From Prorocentrum cordatum (lineage: Eukaryota), in NCBI GenBank assembly GCA_963575745.1, contig CAUYUJ010000320.1:1-64000 (forward strand): DNA of 64,000 nucleotides. Reading direction: 5' to 3'. The position numbers were made by a program, and so were the translations under genes. Under the pieces are notes generated by a model that was given only the letters and a program-made list of their open reading frames with translations, searched no databases and had not been told where the DNA came from. Positions 7,116-58,532 of this stretch are shown here, one piece after another (position 1 is the first letter of the stretch; each line of letters opens with the position of its first letter).

Positions 7116-8231
7116 ATGGCGCCAGGGGGCCGCGGCGGTGGCGAGGCCAAGCCCGACTGGCACTGCCGTTTCTGCAAGTACGAGCGTGGGCCCAAGATCG
7201 GGATGCCATGCATCACGTTCGGCTCCAAGCAGCTCTGCCACTTCTGCGGCGGCGCCAAGGACCGCACCTTCCTGGGCCACGTCCGTGGGGAGGAGGGGCT
7301 GCGCCGTGGCCACAGTGGCACCACGGGTGCTGGTGGTGGCGCAGGGGCCGCTGGGCAGCACCTCGCCATGCAGAGGGAGCTCACCAGGCTGCGGGAGGAG
7401 CTCAAGACCCTGCGGGCGGAGGGCAAGAAAGGCCCCGTGGCGGAGGCGCCCAGCGGCGCTGACGCCGAGGAGGGCTCCGAGGGAGGTGATGAGCAGCGCA
7501 AAATCGAACATCTTGACGGCCAGCTACGTGCGCTGCGAGGCCTCTCCGACCCAGGGAAGGACATTCTCGACACGATCGAGCGGCTGGCGGCCCAGCGGCA
7601 GGCCTTGGCAGAGCAGGTGCGTGCCAAGAAGCCCGTTGTGGCGCAGCTGCTCACTCTCCAGAAGAAGCTCAAGTCCAAGCAGGACGCCATCAGCAGGCAG
7701 GACGCGGCGGTGGCCAAGGCGCAGGAGGCGGTCACCGCGGCGCAGGCTGCGCTGGAGGCCGAGCGCGAGAAGGGCACGAAGCTGCGCGCTGACGCTGCTG
7801 AGCTGGAGGAGCAGGTGCGGGCGCTCAGCGCCCAGGTGCCCAGGCCTCCCGACGCGAAGGAGTCCGTGGGGGACACAGGCGGGGCGCCGAACCTCGACGG
7901 CTTGGCCGACCTGCTCAAGGAGCTGGGGGCGTCGGGCGAGGTCACCGAGAAGTTCTTGGCCCACCCCAAGATCGCGGCGTCTTTCGGCCCTAGGGCTGCG
8001 ACGCGCGTTCGGCCTGCTGGCGATGGGGATCCTGGTGGCGCGGCGGCGCCGCCGCCTGACGCCAAGAGGCTGCGCACGGCGGCTGACAAGGCGCCCCTCG
8101 AGCAGCTGCGCGACAGCATCGCGGCCGCTGGAGTCCAGGCCCCCACCGGGCCAAGGCGCACCAGATCGCCGCCGCCGCCAGTGCGTGGGCCTACCGTGCC
8201 TACTCGGCGTCAGGGGCCGTGCTCAGTATGA
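7116..8231 (+). CDS. LINE ORF1: RanBP2-like Zn finger plus coiled coil
   Basis: WHCRFC-x-CHFC near the N-terminus, long A/E/K/Q helical segment; first ATG in this frame after the SL is at 7116. Confidence 0.8.
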   Translation: MAPGGRGGGEAKPDWHCRFCKYERGPKIGMPCITFGSKQLCHFCGGAKDRTFLGHVRGEEGLRRGHSGTTGAGGGAGAAGQHLAMQRELTRLREELKTLRAEGKKGPVAEAPSGADAEEGSEGGDEQRKIEHLDGQLRALRGLSDPGKDILDTIERLAAQRQALAEQVRAKKPVVAQLLTLQKKLKSKQDAISRQDAAVAKAQEAVTAAQAALEAEREKGTKLRADAAELEEQVRALSAQVPRPPDAKESVGDTGGAPNLDGLADLLKELGASGEVTEKFLAHPKIAASFGPRAATRVRPAGDGDPGGAAAPPPDAKRLRTAADKAPLEQLRDSIAAAGVQAPTGPRRTRSPPPPVRGPTVPTRRQGPCSV

Positions 8232-36480: not shown

Positions 36481-36824
36481 ATGGCGCTGCGCAGGGCCAT
36501 GCTGACGCGGGACCGCGGCGGGCAACTTTCGGGCAACTTTCGGGCAACGTTCGGGCAACTCGGGGAAGTTGCCCGAGCGTTGCCCGAAAGCTGCATGCGG
36601 TCTTACCCACCCCCTCCTCGAGAGGAGGGGGGGAGGAAGAGTTGGAGGAGGAGGAAGAGGAGGAGCTCCTAGGAGGAGGAGGAGGAGGAGGAGGAGCAGG
36701 AGTAGTAGGAGGAGGGGGGCGACGATGACGACGACGAGGGCGAGAACGATAACGAGGGCAAGGGCGAAAAAGATGACAACGACGCCGACGCCGATGCCGA
36801 CGCCGACGCCGCCGACGACAACGC

Positions 36825-42583: not shown

Positions 42584-43270
42584 GCGGGCAAGTGTCGGGC
42601 AAGTGTCGGGCAAGTCGCGGGCAATTCTCTGGCAAGTCTCGGGCAAGGTTCGGGCAAAATTCGGGCAAGTTTCGGGCAAAGGTCGGGCAAATTTCGGGCA
42701 AGTCACGGGCAAGTTTCGGGCAATTCTCGGGCAAGTTTCGGGCAAGTTCCGGGCAAGTTTCGGGCAAGCTTCGGGCAAGTGTCGGGCAAGTTTCGGGCAA
42801 GTTTCGGGCAAGTTTCGGGCAAATGTCGGGCAAGTTTCGGGCAAGTTTCGGGCAAGTCACGGGCAAGTTTCGGGCAATTCTCGGGCAAGTTTCGGGCAAG
42901 TTTCGGGCAAGTTTCGGGCAAGTTTCGGGCAAGTTTCGGGCACGTGTCGGGCAAGTGTCGGGCAAGTTTCGGGCAAGTTTCGGGCAAGTTTCGGGCAAGT
43001 TTCGGGCAAGTTTCGGACAAGACGCGGGCAAGTTTCGGGCAAATTTCGGGCAAGTTTCGGGCAAGTCGCGGGCAAGTTTCGGGCAAGTTTCGGGCAAGTT
43101 TCGGGCAAGTTTCGGGCAAATATCGGGCAAGTTGCTGGCAATTCTCGGGCAATTTTCGGGCAAATTTCGGGCAAGTCGGGCACGTGTCGGGCAAATGTCG
43201 GGCAAGCCGCGGGCAGGCCGCGGGCAAGTTTCGGGCACGTTTCGGGCAACTCCCCCGAGCAATTCGGGCA
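42584..43270. repeat. 11-bp tandem satellite (TTTCGGGCAAG)n
   Basis: Seen directly; further arrays at 36519-36590, 47120-47412 and 50595-50997, and a GGGCAAAAACC variant at 46256-46403. Confidence 0.95.
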
Positions 43271-43655
43271 GCTCTCTGGGAAGTGTCGGCTGCGGCTTCT
43301 CCCTCATGCTGCTCGGGTCGTTCCCCCCGCGGGCACGCCAGGTGACTGGCGTCGCGATGAACCCGCACGGCTCCCCCGTGACCATCCAGGCGGGCGGTGG
43401 GCGCGGGTTCCCGTGCCACCTCACCCTCATCGGTCCTGCCCGAGCTCCGCCTCCCTCCCCCCCTGCTCTCCTGCTCCTGCTCTCCTCCCCAAACTGTTGC
43501 TTACCCCATAATTACCCTCCTCCGAGGTCTTTGCCATCCTCGCACATTCCCCTCCTGCTCCTTTCCCCCTCTCCTTCATCCCCATCCTGAGAAGGAAGAG
43601 GGATGAGGAGGTGAGGGGTAGCCGTCTAGAATAAGTGGTTGACGATAACTCAATC

Positions 43656-45087
43656 ATGCGTGCGGCAACGGCTGTTAGCAGAGCTGGGCGGACAGGGGGG
43701 CATGTTTGGCAGCGCTCTGATATAACATCAGCGCAGGCGCAAGGCTTCGAGAGCAAGTTGCTGGAGGCCTTCAAGAAATCGAACATTATGCAGGCGGAGG
43801 CCACAGACGATGGCGAGGCAGCCCCAGCTGAGGAGGATGATGACAGGGACTTGAACCTCGAGGCAGCGGCGGCGGCTGGTTTCGACATCGGCAGCCAGAC
43901 CCCCCTGGGGAAGAGGTACGCTCTCTTCCGTCGCAACTGCGCCGAGGAGACGGAGCGCTACAACTTGTTGGACCCGCACGGCAAGAAGAAGAGGGTCAGA
44001 GAGTGGGTGAAGGAGCAGTTCGACGAGTACCAGGATACGTTTACGACGATGATGACGACGACGGCGGCGGCGGCGATGACGACATGATGATGTTGATGAC
44101 GACGACGACGACGAAGGCGAAAACGATGACGACCCCCTAGACCAGAAACCTAGAAACCAAGGGGTAGGGGGGCAGAAACTGATAAGCAACGGGTGTGGTT
44201 TTGTTCATCTGCAGGAGAAGCGGGCCAAGATCAACGAGCGGGTCAAGCGGGATACGACGACTGGCCAGTGGATGACGTTCGAGGGTATGATCACCGCTGA
44301 GATGGGCGGCGGAGGCGGCCCTCCCACGAAAGCGGCAGCGCAGGGGGCCGTCAACCGATGCATGTACCTCATCAACAAGGGGCCCAAGCACGTGCGCATC
44401 AATGTGGAGAGCAAGCGCATGGAGTTCAAGAGGAAGACTGATACGGAGACGGTGGATCACGTGAACATCAGCCGCAGCACCAGGCTCGAGACGCGTGACG
44501 CCGTCAGGCAGTCTGGTGCGGCAGTTCAGACTCCAGCGGCAAAAGCAGGTGCAGCTGTGGAGCATACGCCAGACCCCGTTCAACGACCGACTGGCGCTGA
44601 AGCTGCAGCTCCTCCGAAGCCATCGTCACCGAGCTCGGGATCCAAGGCAAGCAAGGGCAAGGGCAAAGACGGGAAGGGAAAGGCAAAGGGGAAGGCGAAG
44701 GCAAAATCGAAGGCAAAGGCCGCCACCCCGAAGTTGGTGGAGACAAAAGCGAAGCACGTCGTGAAGGAGTTCTCGGCTGTGCTACAGAGATCCAAACACC
44801 TCGTCACCACCATCGAGAAACCAGACAGCAAGCTGTCCTGGGCCAACACGGACAGGTTCAAGGGCAAGCTCGTCCGCAAGATTGACGCGACCCAGGCCAA
44901 GATCTCAGAGTACACGGACTTGGAGAACCTCATGCTCTACAACTACGACTTGTCGGAAGCCTTCCTCAACGACGTGCACGGGTCGCTGTCGGCGGTCGAG
45001 GAGTTACAGGAGTCCATCACGTCCCTGGACCAGTGCTTCCAGAAGATCCAGGACCTCGAGAACGACGAATTCCCGTCCCAGGAGTAG
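43656..45087 (+). CDS. Cargo gene C, unknown, ~416 aa (exons 43656-44033, 44215-45087)
   Basis: GA-AG phase-0 intron joins FDEYQ|EKRAK; Lys-rich KGKGK linker and C-terminal helical region; start uncertain. Confidence 0.65.
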
Positions 45088-47119
45088 ATGCCGTGCTGGT
45101 GAACACGTTCGCCCGCGTCGCACACAGCATAGCTGTGCCCGCCTGACCCCGCTGAGAGGGGCGCTGCTCGGCCAGGGAGTGGATGAGGGTACCATGGCGA
45201 GTGAGGATGACGGCGACGCAGATGCCAATGCTTGATGCAATGGCAATAATAGTTACATCATCGATGACAATGACGAAAACGGTCATGACGCCGACGGCGA
45301 CACTAATGACGATGACGACGACGGTCATGATGGTACGGCTTGGTGTCTCTCGATCCTCCTCCCATTCATATTGCCTGGCTCGTTCTCCCTCTCTCCATCT
45401 CTCCCTATATATCTCCCTCTCTCTATATATATACATATATATATCCCTCGAAATCTCTCCAACGATATCTATCCATCCTTACATTCTCCCCATATTCCTG
45501 TCCCCTGTCTCTTCCTCTATATCCCGTTTCCTCTCCACCCCGATACCCCCCTCGCCGTCCTCCATCCCTGTGGTTCGTCCATCCCTCCATCTCTCTATAT
45601 CTCCCTCACTCTCTCTCTCTCTCTCTCATTCTCCCTCTCTATCTGTTTTATATATGCTTGTATCCCTCCCCACACCTCATTCCTCTCGCCCCCCTTGACT
45701 GTTCCTCTCTCTCTTTCTCTCTTTCGGAGTGCGGTCCTGGAGCTGATAGCGGTGGCATCTCGATGCCTGGGACTGGCCAGAACGACAGGATGAGGATGAC
45801 GATGGCGAGTGGAACGACGAGGGTGAGGGCAAGCAGGAGGGGAAGAGGATCAGGGACGGGCGAATGTATGCAGGGTGGCAGCAACAGCAGACGGGAGGTA
45901 CACAGAGGATGAGTAGGCCGAGGGGAGGGCCGAGGAGGAGAAAGGCGATGGAGAGGTAGTGGATGAAAGGTCGGGCAAGAGCAGGCTTTCGCCGCTAGGA
46001 TGCAGTTTGACAGCTCCCGCCGAGGGGCGTCGGGCAGCTTTAAGCCCCCGAAGAGGGGTGTCGGGCACTTGCGGCGATCGACCACGCGGCCTGCGACGCT
46101 AGTATCGACGCTGGGCGGGGGAGCTCAGAAGAAAAACAACGCTCGGACTCTCACATTGATGAGTTGGGGGGCGCTCAGAGCTGTCTAATTCGAGTAACTC
46201 TTCTCAAGAACGCCGACCTGTCGGAAATTATTACCTTCTCTGGGGCACAAAAAAGGCCGGGCAAAAACCGGGCAAATCCCGGGCAAAAACCGGGTAAAAA
46301 ATTGCCCGTGGGCAAATCGCCTGAGACATCCTCGGAAAATGGCAGGGCACGGGCCGGGCAAAAACCGGGCAAAAACCGGGCAAAAACCGGGTAAAAAATT
46401 GCCCGCGCTAGATGTGACTCGGAAGCGCCCCTTGGCGGCTCCTGGACCCATATGTAAACGCAGCGTAGCCCTCAATAAAGATAGGGGAGGGCATATTTGA
46501 AGGGAAATGAGAAAGGGAAAGGATGGGTGAGGAGGAAATTGAGGAGAAGGAGGAGCCCAGGAGGGAGGCGAACAGGAGTAGGGCGAGGAGTAGAACGGCG
46601 CGGGGAATGTCTGGAGGCACGAAGAAGGCATGGAAGAGATGGAGCAGGAAGATGGGGGCGCCTGTGAGCGCAATAATCGTGACTACCAACCCCCGTGACT
46701 ATCACGCAAACTCTCCTTGAAATGAGTTTATCCTCTTATTAAGAATTCCTCCTCCTCCACCTTCCCCTTCACCTCCTCCTCCTCCTCCTCCTCCTCCTCC
46801 TCACCCTCCTTCTCCTCCTCCTCTCCTCTGCCCGCTACGACTGCATGCCTCCTCCTGCTCCTCCTCATCCTCCTCCTATTTCAAAACCTTCCCATCTCGT
46901 GCAACTCCTCGCTCTCACGATCGGCCTTTGCAATTTGCCCCTCCGTTCTCGAGCCATCATGACGGTCGTTACCTACATCGGTGCCCAGCGCGACCACTAG
47001 GACGCGAGCGCCGAGGCGCGTGGGGGGAGAGGGGGATGGGAGGAAGGGGCGGGCGGACAGTTGTTCAGCGAAGCTCGACGAGCAACTCTCCGATAGTTGC
47101 AATCAAGGTTTGGGCCAAT

Positions 47120-47412
47120 CTCGGGCAACCAGCGGACACGTTTCGGGCAAGTTGACGGCAAGCTGCAGGCAAGTCTCAGGCAAGTTTCGGGCAAATTACA
47201 AGCAAGCTGCGCGCAAGTGTCAGACATCTAGCGGACAACCATCAGGCACGTCTCGGGCAAGTTTCGGGCAAGTCTGGGGCAAGGTGTGGGCAAGTTGCAA
47301 GGTGCGGGCAACGTGCGGGCAAGTATCGGGCAGACTGCGGGCATGTCTCGGCCAAGTATCAAGCGAATACCAAACGATTTGCAGGCAATTGACGGGCGAG
47401 CTTCGGGCAAGG
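47120..47412. repeat. Degenerate (TTTCGGGCAAG)n array
   Basis: Seen directly. Confidence 0.75.
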
Positions 47413-47753
47413 TGCAGGCCAATGTTGGATAAATAAGTGTCGAGCACTTCTCCGCGCTGTTGTGGAACACCTCCACGGGACGGGGTGCCTTCGCCCGCGC
47501 GACCACGTGGAGGCAGCCCAGTTCGGAGCCCCAGGCTGGCGTGAATCGACGTTGAGGCGCGGAGAGCGCGCTGGAGACGGACTCCTGCGACGCGGGAAAG
47601 ACATCCCCTCCGATCAATGTTTTTGCACCCCTGTTTCCTTTATTGATGGATCGGTTCGGCCGAAACATGGCGGAGAGAAGTTGGGGTATGATATGGGGAT
47701 GTCATTCCTGTCGTTGCCGCGGTCGTTGCCCCCCCCCCCCCGAGTGTTTGCTG

Positions 47754-47775
47754 TCCTTAGCCGTTTTGGCTCAGT
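47754..47775 (+). other. Relict spliced leader upstream of the transposase ATG
   Basis: TCCTTAGCCGTTTTGGCTCAG, about 10 nt before the ATG at 47786. Confidence 0.65.
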
Positions 47776-47785
47776 CATTCGCGCG

Positions 47786-50435
47786 ATGGTGAAGCGAGCC
47801 CGCCAATCCCCCTCGCCGCCATATCGGCGATTCAGTTGGGAGTGCGATGGTCCAGAATCGTCTGGGGGCCAAGGCGGATCGGGTTCGAGAACCGCCGATT
47901 CTGGCGATCTGGAGGAGCACCTGTTGCGCCTGTATGCAACAGGGCGCCTCGACTCCAAGGCCCTTTGCTTAATCTGCTTTTACGCTGTCAAAGCTGGGGC
48001 CAGAGGTGAACTCTTGGAGGCGCTGCAGTTCGGTCCAGACAAACAAAGTGGTAAATATGCAAAGCATCTGAAAGACGTCTTGCCCGAGCAAGTTGCGGCG
48101 CCCGAGTGGCACTGGTTACAGCTACCCGTGACGCTGAAAGGGACTCGAACTTCAAAAACCTTTCCATGTGCTCCTCCGCACGAGTGTCTGGAGGCGGAGC
48201 TCGAGCATCTTCATACTGTTGGGAAAAATGTGGACGACATTGCTAATGGGACAGATTGGGCTACATCATTCTACAACCATGAGCATTGCAATGTTCCCGA
48301 TGATCCGCGTCCAGTGTTTCCAGTTGCTGTATATTTAGATGGCATAAAATACACTCGTTCGATTGGCCCTGGAAGGAGCGACTCGCTGACGGCAGTGACT
48401 TGTTACAACTTGGCTACGCAATCTCGGCATATCATCGCGGTGCTGAGCAAAAAGGAAGCATGCAAGTGCGGCTGTCGTGGATGGGACTCGCACTGGTCAA
48501 TATTTAACTACGTGCGGTGGTCGATGGAGGAAACGAGGGTGTCAACGAACGAGGGGCAGCACAACAACCCACGCATGCAAACACACGCATACACGCGCAC
48601 GCGCATTCACACGCACACGCACACGCACACGCACACACACACACACACACGCAGATACGCACGCACGCACGCACGCACGCACATACACACACACACACAC
48701 TTGCACACACACACACCCACACACGCACACACGAACACACACACAAAGACGCCCTCACACAAATACACACACATATCCCCCACACACACACACACACACA
48801 AACACGCAAACACATACAAACACACACACACACACACAGTTTTGATCGCATCGGGCTGGAAGCACCCCGTAGCCGTCGTAGTCGGGCAGGCGGCGCGGAC
48901 TAATTTGGCGATGCGTTGATCGCGGCAGTATCGAGAGGTCAAGCACCTGTGCCGTCAGCTCACGGCGCTGCGTTCATTGTAAGCGGGGCGCCAAGCACAC
49001 ACACACATACATACATACATTACATACATACAAACACACACAACCACACACACAAACACACACACATACAGGACGGGGGGACTGACGGGGGAATTCATGC
49101 TTGTTGGCACCCCAGGCGGCCACGAAAGGCGTGCGGCCCCATCTCAGGTGGGATGGCACTCCCTGGGACCATGGGTCAAAGTCAGGTGAACTTGTGGGCA
49201 GCCCGATGGCCGCTAGATTTCTTTTGGTGCAGGTAAAAGGCGACTGGATGGAGCTCAGCAGCACAATGGGGTTCCCGACGTGGTCATCGGTATTTGCCCC
49301 ATGCTTTCTTTGTGGCTGCACGAAAGAAACAATGTATAAGTTCGGCAACATCACATTAGAGCATTCGGACTGGGGTAAGAGAGCGAACTCGTATGATGAC
49401 GAATGCACTAATCATGAAACAGTGGTGAACGTTGATTCTCCTGAGGTCCGAGATCTAATCATGGAAACAGGTCTCCTCAGGTTGGCCAAAGACAGAAAGC
49501 AGCTAGGGCGAGTTCTTGGCGCAGCCCTCCCTGCGCTGGGGTTGCAGAAAGGAGACAGGCTAGATCCGTCCATGGAGCTTTCCGACACGTCGAAGTTTGA
49601 GACGAGAAGTTTACCGTTTGTTTGTGTCTTCTGGCGGCCTAAGTACGACGAAAAAAAACGGATCGCTTCGTGGGTGCTCCGCCGCAACCCATTATTCTGC
49701 AGAGAGCTGGGGACCTCGCCCGATGCTGTCCTACACTTAGACACTCTTCACACTTTATACTTAGGCGTATTTTCATCATTCGTGCTGGCTGTGATTCTGT
49801 GTTTGGTCAACGCAAACGTTTACAATGTTGAAGGGCCACAAGAGGTGGTTCGGGCAGTGACCCTTAAACGGATGTTCAGCGATTACAAGCAGTGGTGCGA
49901 TAGAAACAATATTAACAACAGCTATCAGTTATCTACACTCACGCCAGCAATGATCTATCACAAGAAAGGCCCCCCAGAACTGAAAACCAAAGCTGCCGAA
50001 ACGGGAGTGCTTCTCAGGTGGGCGCAAGATTTTTGCACGAGGCCTGGCGTCACGCCGCAATTCCGAGAGCGGGATATCCTCGGCGCGGCGGGCACCTGTC
50101 TCGTTGACTACATGGCGATACTTCGTGAATGTGGCATTCGTGTTGAATGGAGCTTGTGTCAACGACTCATGTTTTTATGCCTCAGGCATATATCATTGAT
50201 GGAGGATGCAGGGAACGAGCATCTGCCCAAATGCCACATGTTCGTTCATGTTACCCAGAAGATCCATGTCCAGGGGAACCCGCGCTACTACAGTACATTT
50301 TTGGATGAGTCGTTGAACCTTGTCATTGCAAACATGGCAGCAGCTTCTCATAAACAGAACTGGGAACTATCGATTATGCAGAGGGCACGCTTGCTACCTA
50401 TTGTGTCGGAGAACGCTGCGTTCGCAATTGTATGA
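47786..50435 (+). CDS. DDE transposase-like protein, CMC/Plavaka type, ~687 aa (exons 47786-48529, 49116-50435)
   Basis: VYLDG, KGDW, PCFLC, LDTLH (DxxH), [19 protein letters not shown] in the expected order; GA-AG intron filled with (CA)n gives WSME|AATKG in frame. Confidence 0.75.
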
Positions 50436-50594
50436 AGACCGATCGGGGAACTCATCGCCACCTTCACCACTGTCATCGTCATCACTACGGGGAACGGGAG
50501 AGTGACGGGAGGAGGGAAGGAGGGTTAGGAGAAAGGGGTGACAAGTGAGGGCTCAGGATAGCGGAAGCCAAGGCAAGGCACGCAGCTCGAGGCA

Positions 50595-50997
50595 ATGCTC
50601 GGGCAAGTTTCGGGCAACTGCACGCTTCAATATTCTTCTCTAGGGCAAGTCTCGGGCAACGTTCGGGCAAGTCTTGGGCAATTCTCGGGCAAGTTGCGGG
50701 CAATTCTCGGGCAAGTTTCTGGCAAGTCTCGGGCAAGGGGCAATGATCGGGCAAGTTTCGGGCAAGTTTCGGGCAAGGTGCGGACAAGTCTCGGGCAAGT
50801 TTCGGGCAAGTTTCTGGCAAATCGCGGGCAACTATCGGGCAAGTTTCGGGCAAGTCTCGGGCAAGTGTCGGGCAATTCTCGGGCAAGTGTCGGGCAAGTT
50901 TCGGGCAAGTGTCGGGCAAGACGCGGGCAAGTTTCGGGCAAATTTCGGGCAAGTTTCGGGCAAGTTTCGGGCGAGTTCCGTGCAACTCTGGGGCAAC
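50595..50997. repeat. (TTTCGGGCAAG)n array
   Basis: Seen directly. Confidence 0.9.
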
Positions 50998-51142
50998 GTT
51001 CGCAACGCGTCCGGGCCGCTCCAGATACATGTGGGAGCAACTCTGGTAACGTCTGATCGAGTTCGGGAAGCAGCAACGCAATTATGTTCGGATTCCCCCC
51101 GGGGCCCCATCGCCTCGGCACCCTCTGCTCCCGCAGGCCGCC

Positions 51143-54100
51143 ATGAGCGCCAGCCCCGCCGCGAAGTCGAAGAGGAAGGCCGAGATGGAGGGGGTGGGCG
51201 TCAGCGACAAGAAGAAAAAGGGGATCGATCTTGGCGACGTCGACGAGGTGACCGAGAGCACCCTGAACTATCACGACGGCGACTGGCAGGACAGAGAGCC
51301 CCTCTTTTCGAAGGTCGAACCGATGATGCGGGGAAATGGTTTCGGGGTCAAGTGATTGGCTCACCAGTGGGTGGTACGAGGTACGAGTGGTCGCCGCCGA
51401 ACTCACGGACTCAGCTCGAAACGCAAGTCGAGGCGCGTCTCTAGGTCTCTCGTCGCTCTCCCCTATCCCTATACACATATGTATGCACGTGTCATCTATG
51501 TTTAGTCTCTCTCTCTCCCCCTCTCTATATACGTACATGACTACATGTATGTATGTCACGATCGGGGGCCATACATGAAACCTTACCCCCTTAGGCCCAA
51601 CGGAACTCCAATATTGCCCCAAGAGGACTCCCCCCCAAAACGAAGGGACCGATAGGGCGTATATATCAAACCCTACCCACCCACCCACTCACCAAAAAAC
51701 AAATATAAGTTCAGGTGCCAATGTGACGCCAGTACAGCCCCACTTGAGACGGGGCCGATACGTAAGGTTAAAGGTCCAGTTCCCAAGGCCAGGAACCATG
51801 CATGACCTCCCCCCACAGACCCAGCGGCACCAAGGGGGGCAAGAAGGCGAAACCCGACAGGATTTAAGGTGTAGTTCCCGAGGCTTCGTGCATATGTTGA
51901 ATACCCCTCTCTCTCACACTCTCTTTCTCGGTGTGTATACGTATGTGTATACACACACTTTATATGCATGTGTGCTTATGCGTTTATGCAGCTCGTTTGC
52001 CTTCGCCCCTGCCCGCCCCTATCGCGCTACCCCGCCAGTAGGAACTGGCGAAGCAGATCATCGGAGACGCGGGTGCCACGCCCCCCGCCCACCTCAACGT
52101 TCTCTCCATTGGCTGCGGCATGAACACGGGGGCGATCGCGATCAAGGAGGCTCGGGCGCTGCGAGATGGGGATGGGGAGGACGAGGAGGAATGATGAGGA
52201 GAACGAGGAAACTTAGATGGGTAGTGGGAGCCAGACACGGCTAAGGTGACGAGCTGAGGATGGCCGAGAGAGGATGGGCGGGAGGAGGAGAGGAACGGGG
52301 ATGAGGAGAGGGTATGGCGAGGAAGCATCGGAAACCAGTGCTACAAATAAAACAATTGAGCACGACACGAGACGCTCTCCTCCCACCTCATTCCCTTTCC
52401 TGCTCCTCATCGTCACCATCCAACAATGTGTTCCTCCTCTGCCATCCCTCGCCCTTCCTTTACTCCCCTACCCCACTCCCTCGGATTCGCCGCCATCCTC
52501 GCGACCAGCCCCTCCTGTATCGCCCCGAACGCGACCCCCCGCCCCCGCAGATGGGGATCAACGTGACAAACTACTGCTACGACATCCTGGCGTGGCTGCA
52601 GCGGCAGGCGTTGTGGGTGGCAGGCGGCGACGATACCCACGTGAAGGTGCCCTGCGACTTCACGAAGGACGCGGAGGGGGGTATCGTTTGTGGCTGCACT
52701 GCTCTGGAGCAGAGACGAGGAGGCTGAGGACAGGATCTGAGGAGGAGAATGGAGGACGGTATGAGGAGGGAGCAGCGCAAACAACAGCAGGAGCAGGAGT
52801 CGGAGCCGACTAACGTAGACGAAGTCGATGTGCATGGGGTGGCAGGCGCAGCTTCTGGTCGACCCGAAAATTCAACGCGATAGCACGGCGGTGTCGAGGT
52901 CGGAACAGGTTTCGTGCCGAATACGAAAGCCAACCAGATGGCTCCTGCCATTGGCTGATGTGACCATGCGGTGCGTGAGACAAAATACATGTCTCTCTCT
53001 CTCTCTCCCCCCCCCCCCCGACCTCGAACAATACACAGACAACGCTGATCGAGAGAGAGATGAGAGGAGATGCGAGGTGATGATAGGATGTGAGAGGAGC
53101 TGCGAGGAGAGAGGAACACGAACGACAAAAACAGAGGTAGGGGACAATCGGTGGAACGTATTTTACACATGTGCGTAAACACATGCGCATATATGCGTAT
53201 GCGTTCATGATCCTTCATACGCGTATACCAGTACGACTACCTGTGATACAAATCAAGAAACATATGTGCACATACATACGTGTACGCATGCATATATACA
53301 TACGTACGTACGCACGTACGTACATACATACATGCACACATACATAATTACATACATACATCCATACAAACATACATACATACATACACATACATACATA
53401 CATACATACACACATACATGTCTACACGCATACATTCATGCATACATACATACATACATACATAATCACATACATACATACATGCATACATGTTTGCATA
53501 CATACATACATACACATGTATCTACATACCCACATACATACATACATAAATACATGCATGTTTACATGCGTGCATACATGCATACACACATACATGCATA
53601 CGTATATACATACATACCTGCATTACACTACATTACATTACATTACATCACAACACACTACATTACAATACATGACATTGCATTCCGTTGCGTTACAATA
53701 CATTACATTACACTACATTACACTACATGACATTATATACACACATGCATGCGCTCATACATATATACGTACACCTATGCATCCATACATACATGCATAC
53801 GTGCATGCATACAAACATACATCGGTATAAACATATCCGTAGATGTGCCTAGTTTGAGGGTGGTGTTAGTATACTCAGTTGGGTCGGTGTTGCATCGTTT
53901 GTCTGAGCTGCGGCGTGGGCATGCCATGAGCATTCGCTCGGCATGTATTTCTATTGCCTTGAGGGGCCGTCGAATCGCTTGAGTGTTTCTCGCGCGTGCC
54001 GCCCCTGCGCCTGCCAGGAGAACCTGGACCAGATCCCCGACGCGCAGGTGATCATCACCGCGCCAGACTCCACGCCGTTTGCTTTTCACGGCCAGGAGCA

Positions 54101-54848
54101 CGCCCAGAAGTCAGAGGGTGACAACGAGTTCCTATCGGCGATGGAGTGCATTGTGAACCAGGCGCGCCGAGACCGAGGCTCGCTCGAGATCTTTATAATC
54201 GAGACCAAGCTTAAGCTAGCAGAAGTTCCTGCTGGACGTGATATAAGCCAGGCCGATGAAGTACTCGAATATTTGACCGCCTCTCTCGGAAAGGACTGGC
54301 TCGTTTGGAAGTGGCTGCTTGAATCGGAACGTTTAGGGCTCCCCCAAGCCCGCTCCAAGATGCACATTTGCGGCAGGAAGAAGAATAGATTCAAGGGGGC
54401 GACAGAACCAGAATTGCGCCCCGAGCAATTCCGCGTGACACAGATTCCGCTGGCAGACATTCTCGACAACAAAGCCCCGAAAGCCCAGGTCACCGATCTG
54501 AGTGAGACCATGCGCGCAAACCTAGCCTCGTATAAGAAACTATGCAAGGATGATCCCGATGGTAGCATTTTCGTTGTCGACGTGAGCAGGCCTGCAGATG
54601 CCAAGCCGAGGGCCAACATGTGCCCCGAGATCACGCCAACCAGCGGTGCCTTGTTCGTGTTTCAAAAGGGATCGCGCGACTTCCACCGATTCCTGCAGCC
54701 AGCAGAGCTGCTCATGCTTCAAGGGTTTCCCCCAGAGGTCTTGAATAATCTTGCGAAGGCCAGGGTTGTTCAGGCCGCAGGCTCTGCGAGTTCGATGGCC
54801 TGCATTGGCCTTAGCGTGGCGTGCTGCTTGTTGGACCGCCTTTCTTAG
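51143..54848 (+). CDS. C5 cytosine DNA-methyltransferase-like protein with degenerate active site, ~400 aa (exons 51143-51289 or -51313, 52042-52149, 52551-52667, 54018-54848)
   Basis: Motif I LNVLSIGCGMN, II YDI, III CDFT, IV ITAPDSTPF (no PC), VI IIETK, VIII GLPQARSK, IX RFLQPAELLMLQGFP, X AAGSAS; all junctions phase 0. Confidence 0.75.
53160..53822. repeat. (CATA/CATTA)n microsatellite in DNMT-like intron 3
   Basis: Seen directly. Confidence 0.9.
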
Positions 54849-55352
54849 GATATGAGCGCATGTGCCTATCCGACAGCGTCGCAACACATATCATGGTAGC
54901 CGTTGTGCTCATGTATACCGACAAGTATTGATATTGAATTGGGGAGGTATCGACCATACGTATACACAAACATGGAAGCACATGTGGGGGAGAGGGAATG
55001 ATGCGGCTTGGCGTGTATGCATATATACATATATATACACCTGTACAAGTCGGTGCGTATATCTTCGCATATGTGCGCATGTACATCGACATATAAAGAA
55101 ATCGATGATGATGTGGGAGGGGGAGGCGTGCACACACGTATTATATACATATATATAATGCAGTTTAAGAAGTCGAACGGTGATGAAGCACACTACCGAG
55201 TTGGCCAACAAGTGATAATACTCAGTACACCTTGACTCTGTTGTACAGGTGTGCACGCGGGCAGCCTGTATAATTGTCCATGGGCCGACGACGACTACTC
55301 CGTAGGCCATTTAGTGGCTTAAGTGCATTTTTGTTGTTTTGCCGTGCAGGAA

Positions 55353-56156
55353 ATGGAACCCGCTGCCAAGGACACATCCCAGATCGAGATTCGTTCCAGT
55401 ACGGAGACATGGACACGATATCCTTACACGCGGCTCATTCTTACAGACTTAGAACAGCAGCCACAACCGAGCGGAGACGATGAAGATGCAGTCCGATTGC
55501 ATGAAGATACGTGCAGGCACACGAAAATACTATGTGATGGCGGCGCGTCAGGCCCGTTCTTTGGAGTCAGCGGATTTGTCGGTTCGAAGTTTACGCCATT
55601 CGCGCAGCTGCGAGAAGGTATCAACTACTCCCTGGTATTCTGGGGAAGCCCCCACTGGGGGGAGCACGCTCACGATAATTCAAGCAAACAATGGAAGTCG
55701 CCAGGTGACTTCAAAAGCAATAGTTTCGAGTCTATGTCATGGAGTGCGCCAACGGCATTGATAGCAATGACATACACCAACGAACACAAGGTCGAATATT
55801 GGAGCCCGACATACAAGACCGACAGATCTCAGCCAGAACTCCGAGAACCGCGACAATTAATAGTTGCCCCATGCTACAACCATGGCTACGTACCGTTGTC
55901 GTCAAGCACCCAGTACCGAGAGATGACACGTGATCATGTCAATGTGGCGCTGTTGGTCCCAGGACGGTTTCGAACTCTCGTAACCTACAGACCCGATAAT
56001 GTGACCATCGACCTAGGAGTTACTCTCTTTCGCACTTTACAGGCGATCCAATGCACTACGGACCAATACGCAATCGAGCTGGGAGGCCAAAGCTTTTCAT
56101 TGGGATTCGAGTTGCACCTTGCAAAGATGGAGCTCGACAAATGGGAGTATGAATAG
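55353..56156 (+). CDS. Cargo gene D, unknown, ~267 aa, single exon
   Basis: Non-repetitive open frame; degenerate SL-like TCCGTAGGCCATTTAGTGGCTTAAG at 55299-55323 upstream. Confidence 0.6.
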   Translation: MEPAAKDTSQIEIRSSTETWTRYPYTRLILTDLEQQPQPSGDDEDAVRLHEDTCRHTKILCDGGASGPFFGVSGFVGSKFTPFAQLREGINYSLVFWGSPHWGEHAHDNSSKQWKSPGDFKSNSFESMSWSAPTALIAMTYTNEHKVEYWSPTYKTDRSQPELREPRQLIVAPCYNHGYVPLSSSTQYREMTRDHVNVALLVPGRFRTLVTYRPDNVTIDLGVTLFRTLQAIQCTTDQYAIELGGQSFSLGFELHLAKMELDKWEYE

Positions 56157-56792
56157 TTGATATATCAGGACGTTGTCCAACACCTATAATTCAACACTTG
56201 GTATCAGGACGTTGCTTATATGGAACTGAAGTTGATCAACAACTACGGTGATCAGCAGATTGAACTATCAGTTGAAGATGTGATGGAATTGAAGTTGATC
56301 GATGCTTATCTATGGGAATGGAGTTCATCAATACTTACTTGAATGTGTTCGACACTTGCATAAAGTGATTTTCAAATCGCAGCTCAGGTTCAACAGATAT
56401 GTTGGCCAATGGGCCGCCTCTCAATTTGCAGTCAGGTTTCGGTGCACAGGCGCTCGAAAGGACACAGCGCCCTTTCAAGACTGATCGGCCTCCTGGCCAA
56501 GTACTTGCAGGCGAGTTCAGCTGTTGCGTCGGATATTCGGGTCAAAACGCACCCGTGGATTTTTCGTCGTCGTCGTCGTGGGAGGTCCTGGGGCCGATCC
56601 TTGGGAATATCACGCCTAAGCGAGGCGCAACTGCTGGAAGACACCCCGCGGCGAGAAAACCTCCAGGAACCAGCGGAACCCCTCCTCCTTCTCCTCCCCC
56701 TCCTCCCCCCCTGCTTCCCTCCTCCTCCCTCCTCCCTCCTCCTCCTCCTCCTCCTCCTCCTCCTCCTCCTCCTCATCCTCCTCCTGCTCTCC

Positions 56793-56814
56793 GCTGTAGC
56801 CATTTTGGCTCAAA
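56793..56814 (+). other. Relict spliced leader after (CCT)n, near the right TIR
   Basis: GCTGTAGCCATTTTGGCTCAAA, 20/22. Confidence 0.8.
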
Positions 56815-57044
56815 TGGTTGTTGTCCGTGCATAACGCAGAGAATCGTGCGCGGAAAAATTTTCAAGACCCAAAAAATTTCAGAAAAAATTTTCCGAAAAG
56901 TCAGCCGTTTTGAAATTTTCAGTTTTTTCTGAAAAAAAAGGACCTCTGGGGTGGTGCTCCAGGAACCGACGCGTTGCTCTGTTATGGAATGTTGGGTGTA
57001 TTGGTGCGGCGCTTCTCAATGCTAGCTTTCTGGGATGTTTCGTT

Positions 57045-57082
<38 letters not shown>

Positions 57083-57974
57083 GCTCTTTTTGCAGCGTCG
57101 GGTCTCGGGGAAGGGGACATGGGCCCCGAGGGAAACGGGCCCAGGACTCGGAGGCGGCCCCGGGAGGCTGGGGTAGGCCCAGGGGAACATCGGTCCACAG
57201 CGGGGGGGGGGGAGGCGAACCCGCTCCTCGATATCGATCCCCAGACCCCGCCTGAGCTGGGGTCGAAGCTGATCACCTTTTCGGGCCGCGTCCAGCCGTG
57301 GCGTCCAGGAGGGCCCTGTTTCCCCCAATCCTGCTGCACAGCCCCCGACCCAGACATCCGGCCGCTCCAAGATCTTCGATGCCAGGGCCCCGGAGGCCTG
57401 GACCACTTCCCTGAGGCCGGTGTTGTTGTCCTGCGTCGTGCTTGGACGGTCCCGAGGCCCGGTGAGGGCCCCCGGAAGCCGAAAATGGCTCCCCCTCCTC
57501 CTCCTCGTCCTCCTCCTCCTTCCCCTCCTCCTCGTCCTCCTCCTCCTTCTCCTCCTCCTCCTCCTCCTCCTCCTCTTCCTCCTCCGCCTCCTCCTCCTCC
57601 ACAAACCACCCGCCCACATTATTCCGGAGCGTCGGACCTCTGGGTCCAAAACCCTGGGCGCTCGTCGTCGCTCCAGTGGCCCGCGTGGGCCCCCCCCCCC
57701 CCCCCCTCTGGGAGCCCTGGGGGGCAGTGAGCAGAGAATTCGCCTCGGGACGAGGAGCTGGCATTGGGGCATGCCCCAGAAAGAGGAAAAGGAGGAGGAG
57801 GAGGAGGAGGAGGAGGAGGAAGAGGAGGAGGAGGAGGAGGAAAAGGAGGAGGAGGAGGAGAAGGAGGAGGAGGAGGAGGAGGGGGAGGACGAGGAGGAGG
57901 GGAAGGAGGAGGAGGGCGAGGAGGAGGAGGAGGAGGAGGAGCAGGATTTCTGTGGATTTCTCTCGGGACGCAGT

Positions 57975-58054
57975 CCCGTCCACGCGAAGGTCCTGGTGCC
58001 CAGGCCTCGCTCGCCGCGCGGACTCGCGGCGGCCGCGCTGCGCGGACCCGCGGC
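57975..58054 (-). CDS. Possible upstream exon of the host formin gene (…GLGTRTFAWT)
   Basis: TAG acceptor; R.F.W resembles the first FH2 Trp motif; weak. Confidence 0.3.
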
Positions 58055-58074
58055 CTATCTGTGCGTCTGGGCGA

Positions 58075-58272
58075 CCCCGTTTGGGCCCCCAGACCTTCTC
58101 TCTTCTTTGCGACTGGCAGCCCCCGTCTGGGCCCCATAGTCTTTGCGACTGGCAGCCCCTTTGGCCCCCGGACCTTTTCTTCCTTTGCGACTGGCAGCCT
58201 CCTTCTGGGCCTCAGACCTTCTCTTGCTTGCGACTGCTAGCCCCTTTTGGCCCCAGACCTTCTCTCTTCTTG
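58075..58272. repeat. ~43-bp tandem minisatellite
   Basis: Repeated ttgcgactggcagcccc..tgg(g)ccccagacctt. Confidence 0.7.
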
Positions 58273-58532
58273 CCCGCGCTCAGCACCTGTGTCGGCGGCC
58301 CCGGCGCAGCCGAGAGGATCATCAACTTTTGCTTCGGCCCCCAAACGGGGTGGTGATGATCCTCTCCTGTTTCTGGGCTCTGGGCTCTCCTACTGGGCTC
58401 TCCGACCTTTTGCTGTTCGTCAACAGGCCATTTCCCTGGATCCGGCCAGGACCATCCACCCCTCGTCCGTGTCGGCCTACGCACAGGCTGTGCGTGCCCC
58501 CTCTTCTTGTCCACATGCTGCTGTTGTGCCAA

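Follow-up and report, generated by a model that had tools for sequence, protein, structure and literature searches.

We analyzed a gene in a 64,000-nt stretch of Prorocentrum cordatum DNA (assembly GCA_963575745.1, contig CAUYUJ010000320.1, positions 1 to 64,000, forward strand), which is called the window below, and found that its predicted product is a C5 DNA methyltransferase homologue with a degenerate active site. As judged from homology, the locus is a spliced, domain-only paralogue of 400 amino acids belonging to a C5 DNA methyltransferase family with an expansion in dinoflagellates. The reading that we favor, with modest confidence, is that the protein is a non-catalytic C5 methyltransferase paralogue that acts either as a DNA binder or as an accessory factor or competitor of active paralogues. 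The predicted fold, the structural core and the conserved target-recognition residues are kept, and the catalytic residues have been lost.

Pfam and the Protein Data Bank (PDB) were searched with the translated exons, and sequence databases were searched with exon 4, the largest exon. Exon 4 matched the C5 methyltransferase family PF00145 with an E-value of 0.029 and 14.3 bits, which is under the 22-bit cutoff; the pieces from exons 1–3 had no match in Pfam, and the direct PDB sequence search with exon 4 returned chance-level rows only (E 0.31–0.48). By itself, the exon 4 sequence would not qualify as a methyltransferase. In an exhaustive HMMER search, exon 4 had 147 relatives at E ≤ 1e-3, with 45 at E ≤ 1e-10 and 9 at E ≤ 1e-30, and the best E-value outside the 90% cluster of exon 4 itself was 5.5e-45. 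All 14 relatives that were scanned passed PF00145, with 42–107 bits, and a profile of 93 aligned sequences matched M.HaeIII (3e-35) and M.HhaI (6e-32) in the PDB. Because exon 4 lies below the Pfam cutoff while its relatives pass PF00145, membership in the C5 methyltransferase family, as derived from these comparisons, is transitive via the relatives and not a direct Pfam match. The homology covered the whole length of the 400-residue protein, and the relatives form a large family of C5 DNA methyltransferases that consist of the domain only and stem from marine eukaryote data.

Most of the relatives came from short unnamed marine contigs, and one cluster was named site-specific DNA-cytosine methylase by its source. 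Two relatives are annotated as partial P. cordatum proteins, one of which, P0148, was 97% identical to exon 4. The identity to the window copy was 99% for P0001, 91% for P0036, 51% for P0024, 46% for P0041 and 40% for P0011. A word-indexed protein search with exon 4 returned P0001 only, and a single-protein scan of metagenome contigs returned four loci with 25–42% identity over short parts only. P0001, P0011, P0024, P0030, P0036 and P0041 all belong to a single EukProt set with the label Pyramimonas sp. CCMP1952. One Pyramimonas-labelled protein was in the same 90% cluster as a P. cordatum protein, and the label probably reflects foreign (dinoflagellate) sequence in that set. In P0036, the intron before exon 4 is read through, which indicates that it originates from DNA or unspliced RNA.

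The structure was modelled for exon 4 (motifs IV–X). The AlphaFold2 model built with the 93-row alignment showed a mean predicted local distance difference test (pLDDT) score of 93.3 and a predicted TM-score (pTM) of 0.88, and its weak part comprised residues 21–40 only, corresponding to the loop after motif IV. Upon comparison with the PDB, Foldseek revealed 127 matches at E ≤ 0.001. The top rows, all with a probability of 1.00 and TMq values of 0.53–0.66, were DNMT5 (1.8e-11, TMq 0.63), M.MpeI, M.HhaI, M.HaeIII, including its DNA-bound C71S mutant, and DNMT2. C5 methyltransferases led the matches, in agreement with the assignment that an earlier note on this DNA had made from the sequence alone. 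The predicted structure thus contained a methyltransferase fold with a target-recognition domain, and DNMT5 was the best structural match of the model.

The same note had proposed that splicing yields a C5 methyltransferase homologue with motifs I to X in the correct order, and this was borne out by the relatives described above and by colinear profile matches; the product of 400 residues also has the length estimated in the note. When a profile of 11 close full-length relatives was compared with all open frames of 50900–55100, three colinear matches were found: exon 2 at profile positions 41–62 (motif I, E 0.009), exon 3 at positions 65–96 (E 0.38) and exon 4 at positions 106–391 (E 6e-63). 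Motifs I to X are therefore colinear in the three exons. The gene extends from the ATG at 51143 to the TAG at 54846–54848, and all four exons are open and in the proposed order; the open stretches on the plus strand are 51143–51355 (from the ATG), 52042–52194, 52542–52727 and 54018–54845, the last of which is followed by the TAG (Table 1).

Table 1. Features of the methyltransferase-like gene and of its neighborhood (positions are those of the window).
Feature	Position	Strand	Description
Gene	51143–54848	+	Four colinear open exons; predicted 400-residue product
Exon 1	51143–51289	+	Start codon; Lys-rich N-terminus, ending in ...DGDWQ; 3' boundary uncertain, frame open until 51352
Exon 2	52042–52149	+	Motif I region (LNVLSIGCGMNTGAIAIKE)
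Exon 3	52551–52667 (alternative end 52670)	+	Motif II–III region (YD ... CDF)
Exon 4 and stop	54018–54848	+	Motifs IV–X and target-recognition domain; 276 residues (54018–54845)
Junction of exons 1 and 2	51289 / 52042		Donor CAG/GA; acceptor TAG/G
Junction of exons 2 and 3	52149 / 52551		Donor GAG/GC; acceptor CAG/A
Junction of exons 3 and 4	52667 / 54018		Donor AAG/GA (or GAC/GC at 52670); acceptor CAG/G
Motif IV	54063–54071	+	P16-D17-S18; APDSTPFA in the window copy, GPPCPPFS in active rows
Motif VI	54201–54209	+	E62-T63-K64 instead of ENV; Glu kept
Motif VIII	54345–54359	+	Q110-A-R112-S-K114 instead of QxRxR; both Arg 100% in active rows
Motif X	54780–54785	+	G255-S256 instead of GN; Asn 100% in active rows; family form GNAM
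Transposase-like gene	47921–50435	+	Two open frames, 47393–48919 (residues 177–401) and 49086–50435
11-bp satellite array (GGGCAAGTTTC)	50599–50996	+	About 150 bp upstream of the start codon; context of the gene

The contribution of each exon was measured by the family score of the joined protein, for which the exons were joined by coordinates in a script. Exon 4 alone scored 205.3 bits; the score rose to 224.6 bits with exon 3 (19 bits gained), to 246.1 bits with exons 2 and 3 and to 248–250 bits with exon 1. Exons 2 and 3 together gained 41–44 bits, compared with a null gain of 0.3 bits (standard deviation 1.2): when they were replaced by 1000 random stop-free fillers from outside the locus, the mean score was 205.6 bits, with a standard deviation of 1.2 and a maximum of 214.3. 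An earlier null of 500 fillers, from which the locus had not been excluded, contained one outlier and reached a maximum of 238.0. The end of exon 2 at 52149 gave the best family score, 249.7 bits. The junction of exons 2 and 3 reads ...IKE/MGIN..., which fits ...RELGIK... in the relatives, and the junction of exons 3 and 4 reads ...DFTK/ENLDQIP...; additionally, the first residue of the P. cordatum protein P0148 is exactly equivalent to the start of exon 4. Exon 1 contributed 2–4 bits only, and its W-x-x-A/L-A-+ stretch could be aligned with the N-termini of the relatives. The donor of this exon is the weakest point of the gene model, as both the frame and the codon bias run on beyond 51289. 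An AG is located 6 nt upstream of the ATG at 51143 and could be a spliced-leader acceptor.

The G+C content of exons 1, 2 and 3 was 0.92, 0.86 and 0.92 at third codon positions (GC3) and 0.39–0.47 at second codon positions (GC2), with exon 1 at 0.39. Among random 117-nt pieces of the window, a GC3–GC2 difference of the size found in exon 2 occurred in 5% and one of the size found in exons 1 and 3 in 3%, and none of 20000 mononucleotide shuffles of exon 4 was stop-free. The donors were all GA or GC and none was GT, and two of the three acceptors were AG/G. Non-GT donors are normal for P. cordatum, since Table 2 of its genome paper gives donor frequencies of 24.7% for GT, 51.4% for GC and 23.8% for GA, with AGG at 79.7% of acceptors (PMC10666404). 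The proposed four-exon structure was thus confirmed as an observation on the sequence, and the junctions of the 400-residue model are predicted from homology, codon bias and splice signals. A tblastn search with the four exon translations revealed no further paralogues within the window.

We also found several repeats and one motif-like stretch inside the locus. Intron 3 is full of (CATA)n and (CATTA)n microsatellites, with about 130 and about 23 copies (53287–53822 and 53621–53735), and AT-rich TG/CA-type tracts are present in intron 1 and in the region downstream of the gene. A C-rich tract just before and overlapping exon 2 encodes RPCPPLSRYPASRNW out of frame (about 52004–52066, frame of 51875), which is similar to motif IV together with the conserved Trp located 12 residues past the Cys (E 0.05–0.06 in a local search of open reading frames). 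This motif-IV-like sequence, 'RPCPPLSR...NW', was rejected as a part of the gene; it is not colinear, it overlaps exon 2 in another frame, and it is probably due to chance in the C-rich tract.

The active-site state of the window copy was evaluated against an 'active' set of 86 rows, which comprised all rows of alignment A3 except the window copy, P0148, P0024, P0011, P0041, P0030 and P0031. The catalytic column of motif IV was Cys in 100% of these rows and Ser18 (codon TCC, 54069–54071) in the window copy, where the Pro of 'PC' was also replaced by Asp. In motif VI, the active rows showed Glu in 100%, Asn in 89% and Val in 94%. The second Arg of motif VIII was replaced by Lys in the window copy, whereas P0001 and P0148 kept RSR, and the GS state of motif X was common to P0011 and P0041. 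All replacements that had been noticed beforehand, namely PDS for PC, ETK for ENV, RSK for RxR and GS for GN in a frame without stops, were recovered in the alignment. Among the columns that were at least 70% conserved in the active rows, 33 of 52 were kept in the window copy and 19 were changed. The changes were concentrated in motif IV with its loop and in motifs VI, VIII and X (16 of 29 columns) compared with the other columns (3 of 23; Fisher p 0.003). The residues kept in exon 4 comprised the hydrophobic core, E62, G107-L-P-Q110, R112, R191, R224, E230 and LQGF. Motif I in exon 2 reads IGCGMNT, compared with PC(C/A)G(L/V)(D/E)T in the family, and retains the GxG; exon 3 still has the acidic residues of motifs II and III, as YD and CDF. 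In M.HhaI, the counterparts of these residues have roles in the binding of SAM (S-adenosylmethionine).

The Cys of motif IV is the nucleophile required for C5 methyl transfer. Because of this established role, we infer that the protein cannot transfer a methyl group to C5 of cytosine by the covalent route. Homology places the gene in the C5 methyltransferase superfamily; since four defining catalytic features are lacking, its predicted product ought not to be classified among the enzymes of this family. The attack on C5 needs a thiolate, as in the established HhaI mechanism. It is highly improbable that the protein is an enzyme with altered chemistry or substrate, and we regarded this as the least probable of the explanations weighed here. 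Such an enzyme would be a Ser-dependent or nucleophile-independent SAM transferase, or the Cys would be restored by an mRNA edit from TCC to TGC. The retained E62, R112, GxG of motif I and acidic residues of motifs II and III are consistent with this idea, as the SAM site and the flipped-base pocket may survive, and nuclear mRNA editing is mentioned for dinoflagellates in the P. cordatum genome paper (PMC10666404). However, four catalytic and cofactor motifs are affected together, beyond the Cys, neither the Asn of motif X nor the Pro of 'PC' is retained, and the same Ser is present in P0036 and P0148. The 5-hydroxymethyluracil of dinoflagellates, to which the earlier note had tied an altered chemistry, is attributed to a different enzyme in one report (PMC11572971), and none of our results supported that suggestion.

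The non-catalytic paralogue that we favor would be a pseudoenzyme in which the DNA-facing and structural parts of a C5 methyltransferase are preserved and which is still able to bind DNA, and possibly SAM; its gene may have been retained by selection. By analogy, two modes of action can be envisaged. The protein may assist active paralogues or compete with them, similar to DNMT3L or DRM3, or it may be a sequence-specific DNA binder, for which the engineered Cys71Ser mutant of M.HaeIII on DNA would be the model.

To place the window protein among known systems, we compared it with bacterial and eukaryotic DNA methyltransferases (DNMTs). It resembled M.HaeIII and M.HhaI, which are members of PF00145, in the fold, in the order of motifs I–X and in the position of the target-recognition domain between motifs VIII and IX; in contrast to these proteins, it is a eukaryotic protein with four coding exons, and exon 4 alone is under the Pfam cutoff. 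The nearest single analogue was M.HaeIII C71S, an engineered mutant crystallized with DNA (PDB 3ubt), the sequence of which reads GPPS. The window copy has the same Cys-to-Ser replacement naturally; unlike 3ubt, it also lacks the Pro of PC, the Asn and Val of ENV, the second Arg of RxR and the Asn of GN. Like DNMT3L in mammals and DRM3 in Arabidopsis, the window copy has lost catalytic residues and coexists with active paralogues in the same genome; DRM3 is reported to be a catalytically mutated DNMT paralogue (PMC2965745), DNMT3L is described as an inactive cofactor, and both proteins support active enzymes. In contrast to both, the window copy belongs to another branch of the superfamily, is domain-only with neither ADD nor UBA domains, is closest in sequence to M.HaeIII and M.HhaI, and is of independent origin. 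Expansions of Dnmt5, Dnmt6, Dnmt3 and an orphan lineage have been described in dinoflagellates by de Mendoza et al. 2018 (PMC5890265). As in the dinoflagellate DNMTs of that account, the window copy is domain-only, belongs to a large multi-copy family and has several exons like the host-type DNMTs; the retrotransposon DNMTs described there have conserved key residues, which the window copy has lost. One narrow literature search for catalytically inactive DNA methyltransferases in dinoflagellates returned nothing relevant, which is not proof of absence. Dead DNMT paralogues are already known, and the window copy would be a new, independently arisen one.

The age of the loss and the constraint on the gene were examined in a tree of 47 rows and 300 columns, which was calculated with a quick IQ-TREE method and from which P0001 and P0036 were left out; the label 'degenerate motifs' in this tree denotes at least two changes on the starred branches. 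The window copy, P0148, P0024 and P0011 formed a clade with a Shimodaira–Hasegawa-like approximate likelihood ratio test (SH-aLRT) value of 96, and the sister of this clade was the active P. cordatum protein P0002, with a support of 88. A word-indexed search with a profile of the degenerate clade returned only P0001, P0011 and P0041, and the clade was not enlarged. Motif VI reads ES in P0024; the first 14 residues of P0011 had no credible alignment and were not used. The identity between the window copy and the diverged members was highest at the most conserved columns, with 37 of 59 positions compared with 18 of 59 others for P0011 (p < 0.001), 22 of 29 compared with 10 of 31 for P0024 (p < 0.001) and 16 of 23 compared with 10 of 24 for P0041 (p 0.08). 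In addition, unconstrained substitution of exon 4 was simulated up to an amino-acid divergence of 28%, which is approximately one lineage's share of the distance to P0024, and the frame remained stop-free in 5 of 400 runs, with insertions and deletions ignored. As inferred from the sequences, the clade of degenerate copies, the identity at conserved columns and the drift simulation argue that the fold and the frame remained under constraint when the motifs had, at least in part, already decayed.

These results have to be weighed against the possibility that the gene is a young, non-functional duplicate of the expanded family that is simply drifting, and whose frame is still open only because constraint was lost too recently. 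We regard this explanation as possible but not probable. Several observations favor it and weigh against a retained protein. Evidence for the Ser of motif IV comes only from the window copy, P0148 and P0036, which share at least 91% identity, and the diverged fragments P0011, P0024 and P0041 do not cover this motif; since motif IV has been seen only in such similar copies, the loss of the Cys may be recent and the older members of the clade may once have been active. Private changes are present at highly conserved columns (100% conserved), namely R114K in the window copy and D to G in the VVDVS of P0148, which suggests relaxed constraint. At the start of exon 4, two copies differ at 4 of 45 residues, compared with 2 of 25 in the adjacent read-through intron, so that coding and intron sequences are about equally different. 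The GC3 of exon 4 was 0.67, below that of exons 1–3, and the low Pfam score of this exon also fits a decaying copy. The related fragments P0011, P0024 and P0041 are short pieces and could be derived from broken genes, and dead copies are to be expected from large dinoflagellate gene families.

Other observations do not fit a drifting duplicate. Since its divergence from the active P0002, the window copy has accumulated 0.47 + 0.35 + 0.46 substitutions per site, a long path along which its 400 codons have gained neither a stop nor a frameshift; in the simulated drift, exon 4 rarely stayed stop-free. The changes cluster in the catalytic motifs and are not evenly distributed, the splice signals are intact in all three introns, and the degenerate motifs VI and X are common to members at 40–51% identity. 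The suggestion that the gene has been kept by selection thus stood in part: the intact frame, the concentration of losses in catalytic motifs, the degenerate clade and the drift simulation favor it, and the signs of relaxed constraint weigh against it. The loss of the Cys was indeed shared with other copies, the near-identical P0148 and P0036.

Degenerate catalytic motifs were also found elsewhere in the family. P0031 is a full-length protein of 369 residues with three cluster members, in which APPA, IIQAP, HHRGM and SQ replace GPPC, ENV, QxRxR and GN; in the tree, it was placed in a different starred group, among active proteins. P0030 is another family member with degenerate catalytic motifs, and the positions of P0030 and the short P0041 were not resolved. 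Loss of catalytic residues therefore seems to be recurrent in the sequences of this methyltransferase family. A broader version of the non-catalytic reading can be built on these proteins: a Prorocentrum clade of non-methylating proteins that bind SAM and flip bases, which would act as regulators of active DNMTs, invented independently of DNMT3L and DRM3, or as sequence-specific readers of cytosine or modified bases in the nucleosome-poor chromatin of dinoflagellates, and which would have arisen at least twice, in the clade of the window copy and in the lineage of P0031. We consider this broader version unlikely.

DNA methylation in dinoflagellates is very unusual, and their set of DNMT genes is hugely expanded. 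If the favored reading is true, the retained paralogue would be a candidate for a regulator or a reader of DNA in this system and an independent parallel to DNMT3L and DRM3; if the gene is merely a drifting duplicate, the finding is ordinary. In either case, DNMT surveys based on PF00145 miss or miscount such copies, because exon 4 alone does not reach the Pfam cutoff and only a partial gene model is public. When caught by such surveys, these copies would be counted as active enzymes.

The gene lies on the same strand as a transposase-like gene located upstream. Both open frames of this neighbor match one family hidden Markov model (HMM), at positions 2–206 and 187–622, and by this colinearity the two frames are halves of one gene, split by a microsatellite; the splitting tract (48581–49070) is CA-rich and consists of (CA)n / (ACACACGC)n. 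The family comprised 46 relatives and contained no Pfam domain in a scan of the open frames of the window and 13 relatives. The AlphaFold2 model of the second frame had a pLDDT of 90, and the 39 best rows in Foldseek were all of the RAG1 core, although the matches were weak (best E 1.6e-3, TMq 0.42). D157, D219 and E305 were nearly invariant in the family, with positions not mapped to RAG1. A protein atlas provided a lead to Plavaka only (0.92, 162 shared features). It is thus plausible that the neighbor encodes a transposase.

This neighborhood raises the possibility that the methyltransferase-like gene is the cargo or partner of a DNA transposon and encodes a non-methylating decoy protecting the element against cytosine methylation by the host. 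The gene lies about 700 bp downstream of the transposase-like gene with the RAG1-like fold, but dinoflagellate genes usually have neighbors on the same strand. Neither terminal inverted repeats nor CACWGTG ends surround the two genes: CACWGTG was not found near the locus and had two matches in the window, at 7311 and 9994, and the inverted repeats within 43000–57000 were of low complexity only, with none joining the transposase-like and methyltransferase-like genes. Moreover, the satellite between the two genes also precedes other open frames in the window, and the transposase assignment itself is weak, with the Foldseek values given above and no Pfam match. There is a precedent in Symbiodinium, whose retrotransposons are reported to carry DNMT domains (PMC5890265); however, these are described in the same paper as keeping key residues and as being free of introns, unlike the present gene. 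We therefore consider a transposon cargo very unlikely, and the earlier suggestion of a decoy or anti-silencing factor for the transposon found no support in our results, as no terminal repeats link the genes.

The GGGCAAGTTTC satellite and its variants formed arrays at 36529–36587, 42595–43249, 45971–45978, 47104–47357 and 50599–50996, almost all of them on the plus strand, and the satellite core TCGGGCAA had 82 matches compared with 2.9 expected. The open frames at 44080, 47393 and 51143 each have an array shortly before them, as if the arrays marked the spacers of a same-strand gene cluster. Downstream of the methyltransferase-like gene, long CCT/AGG/CTC triplet arrays occupy 56680–58270 and form imperfect inverted repeats with arms at 57489–57600 and 57778–57946; after these arrays, a 42-bp tandem repeat is present at 58076–58273.

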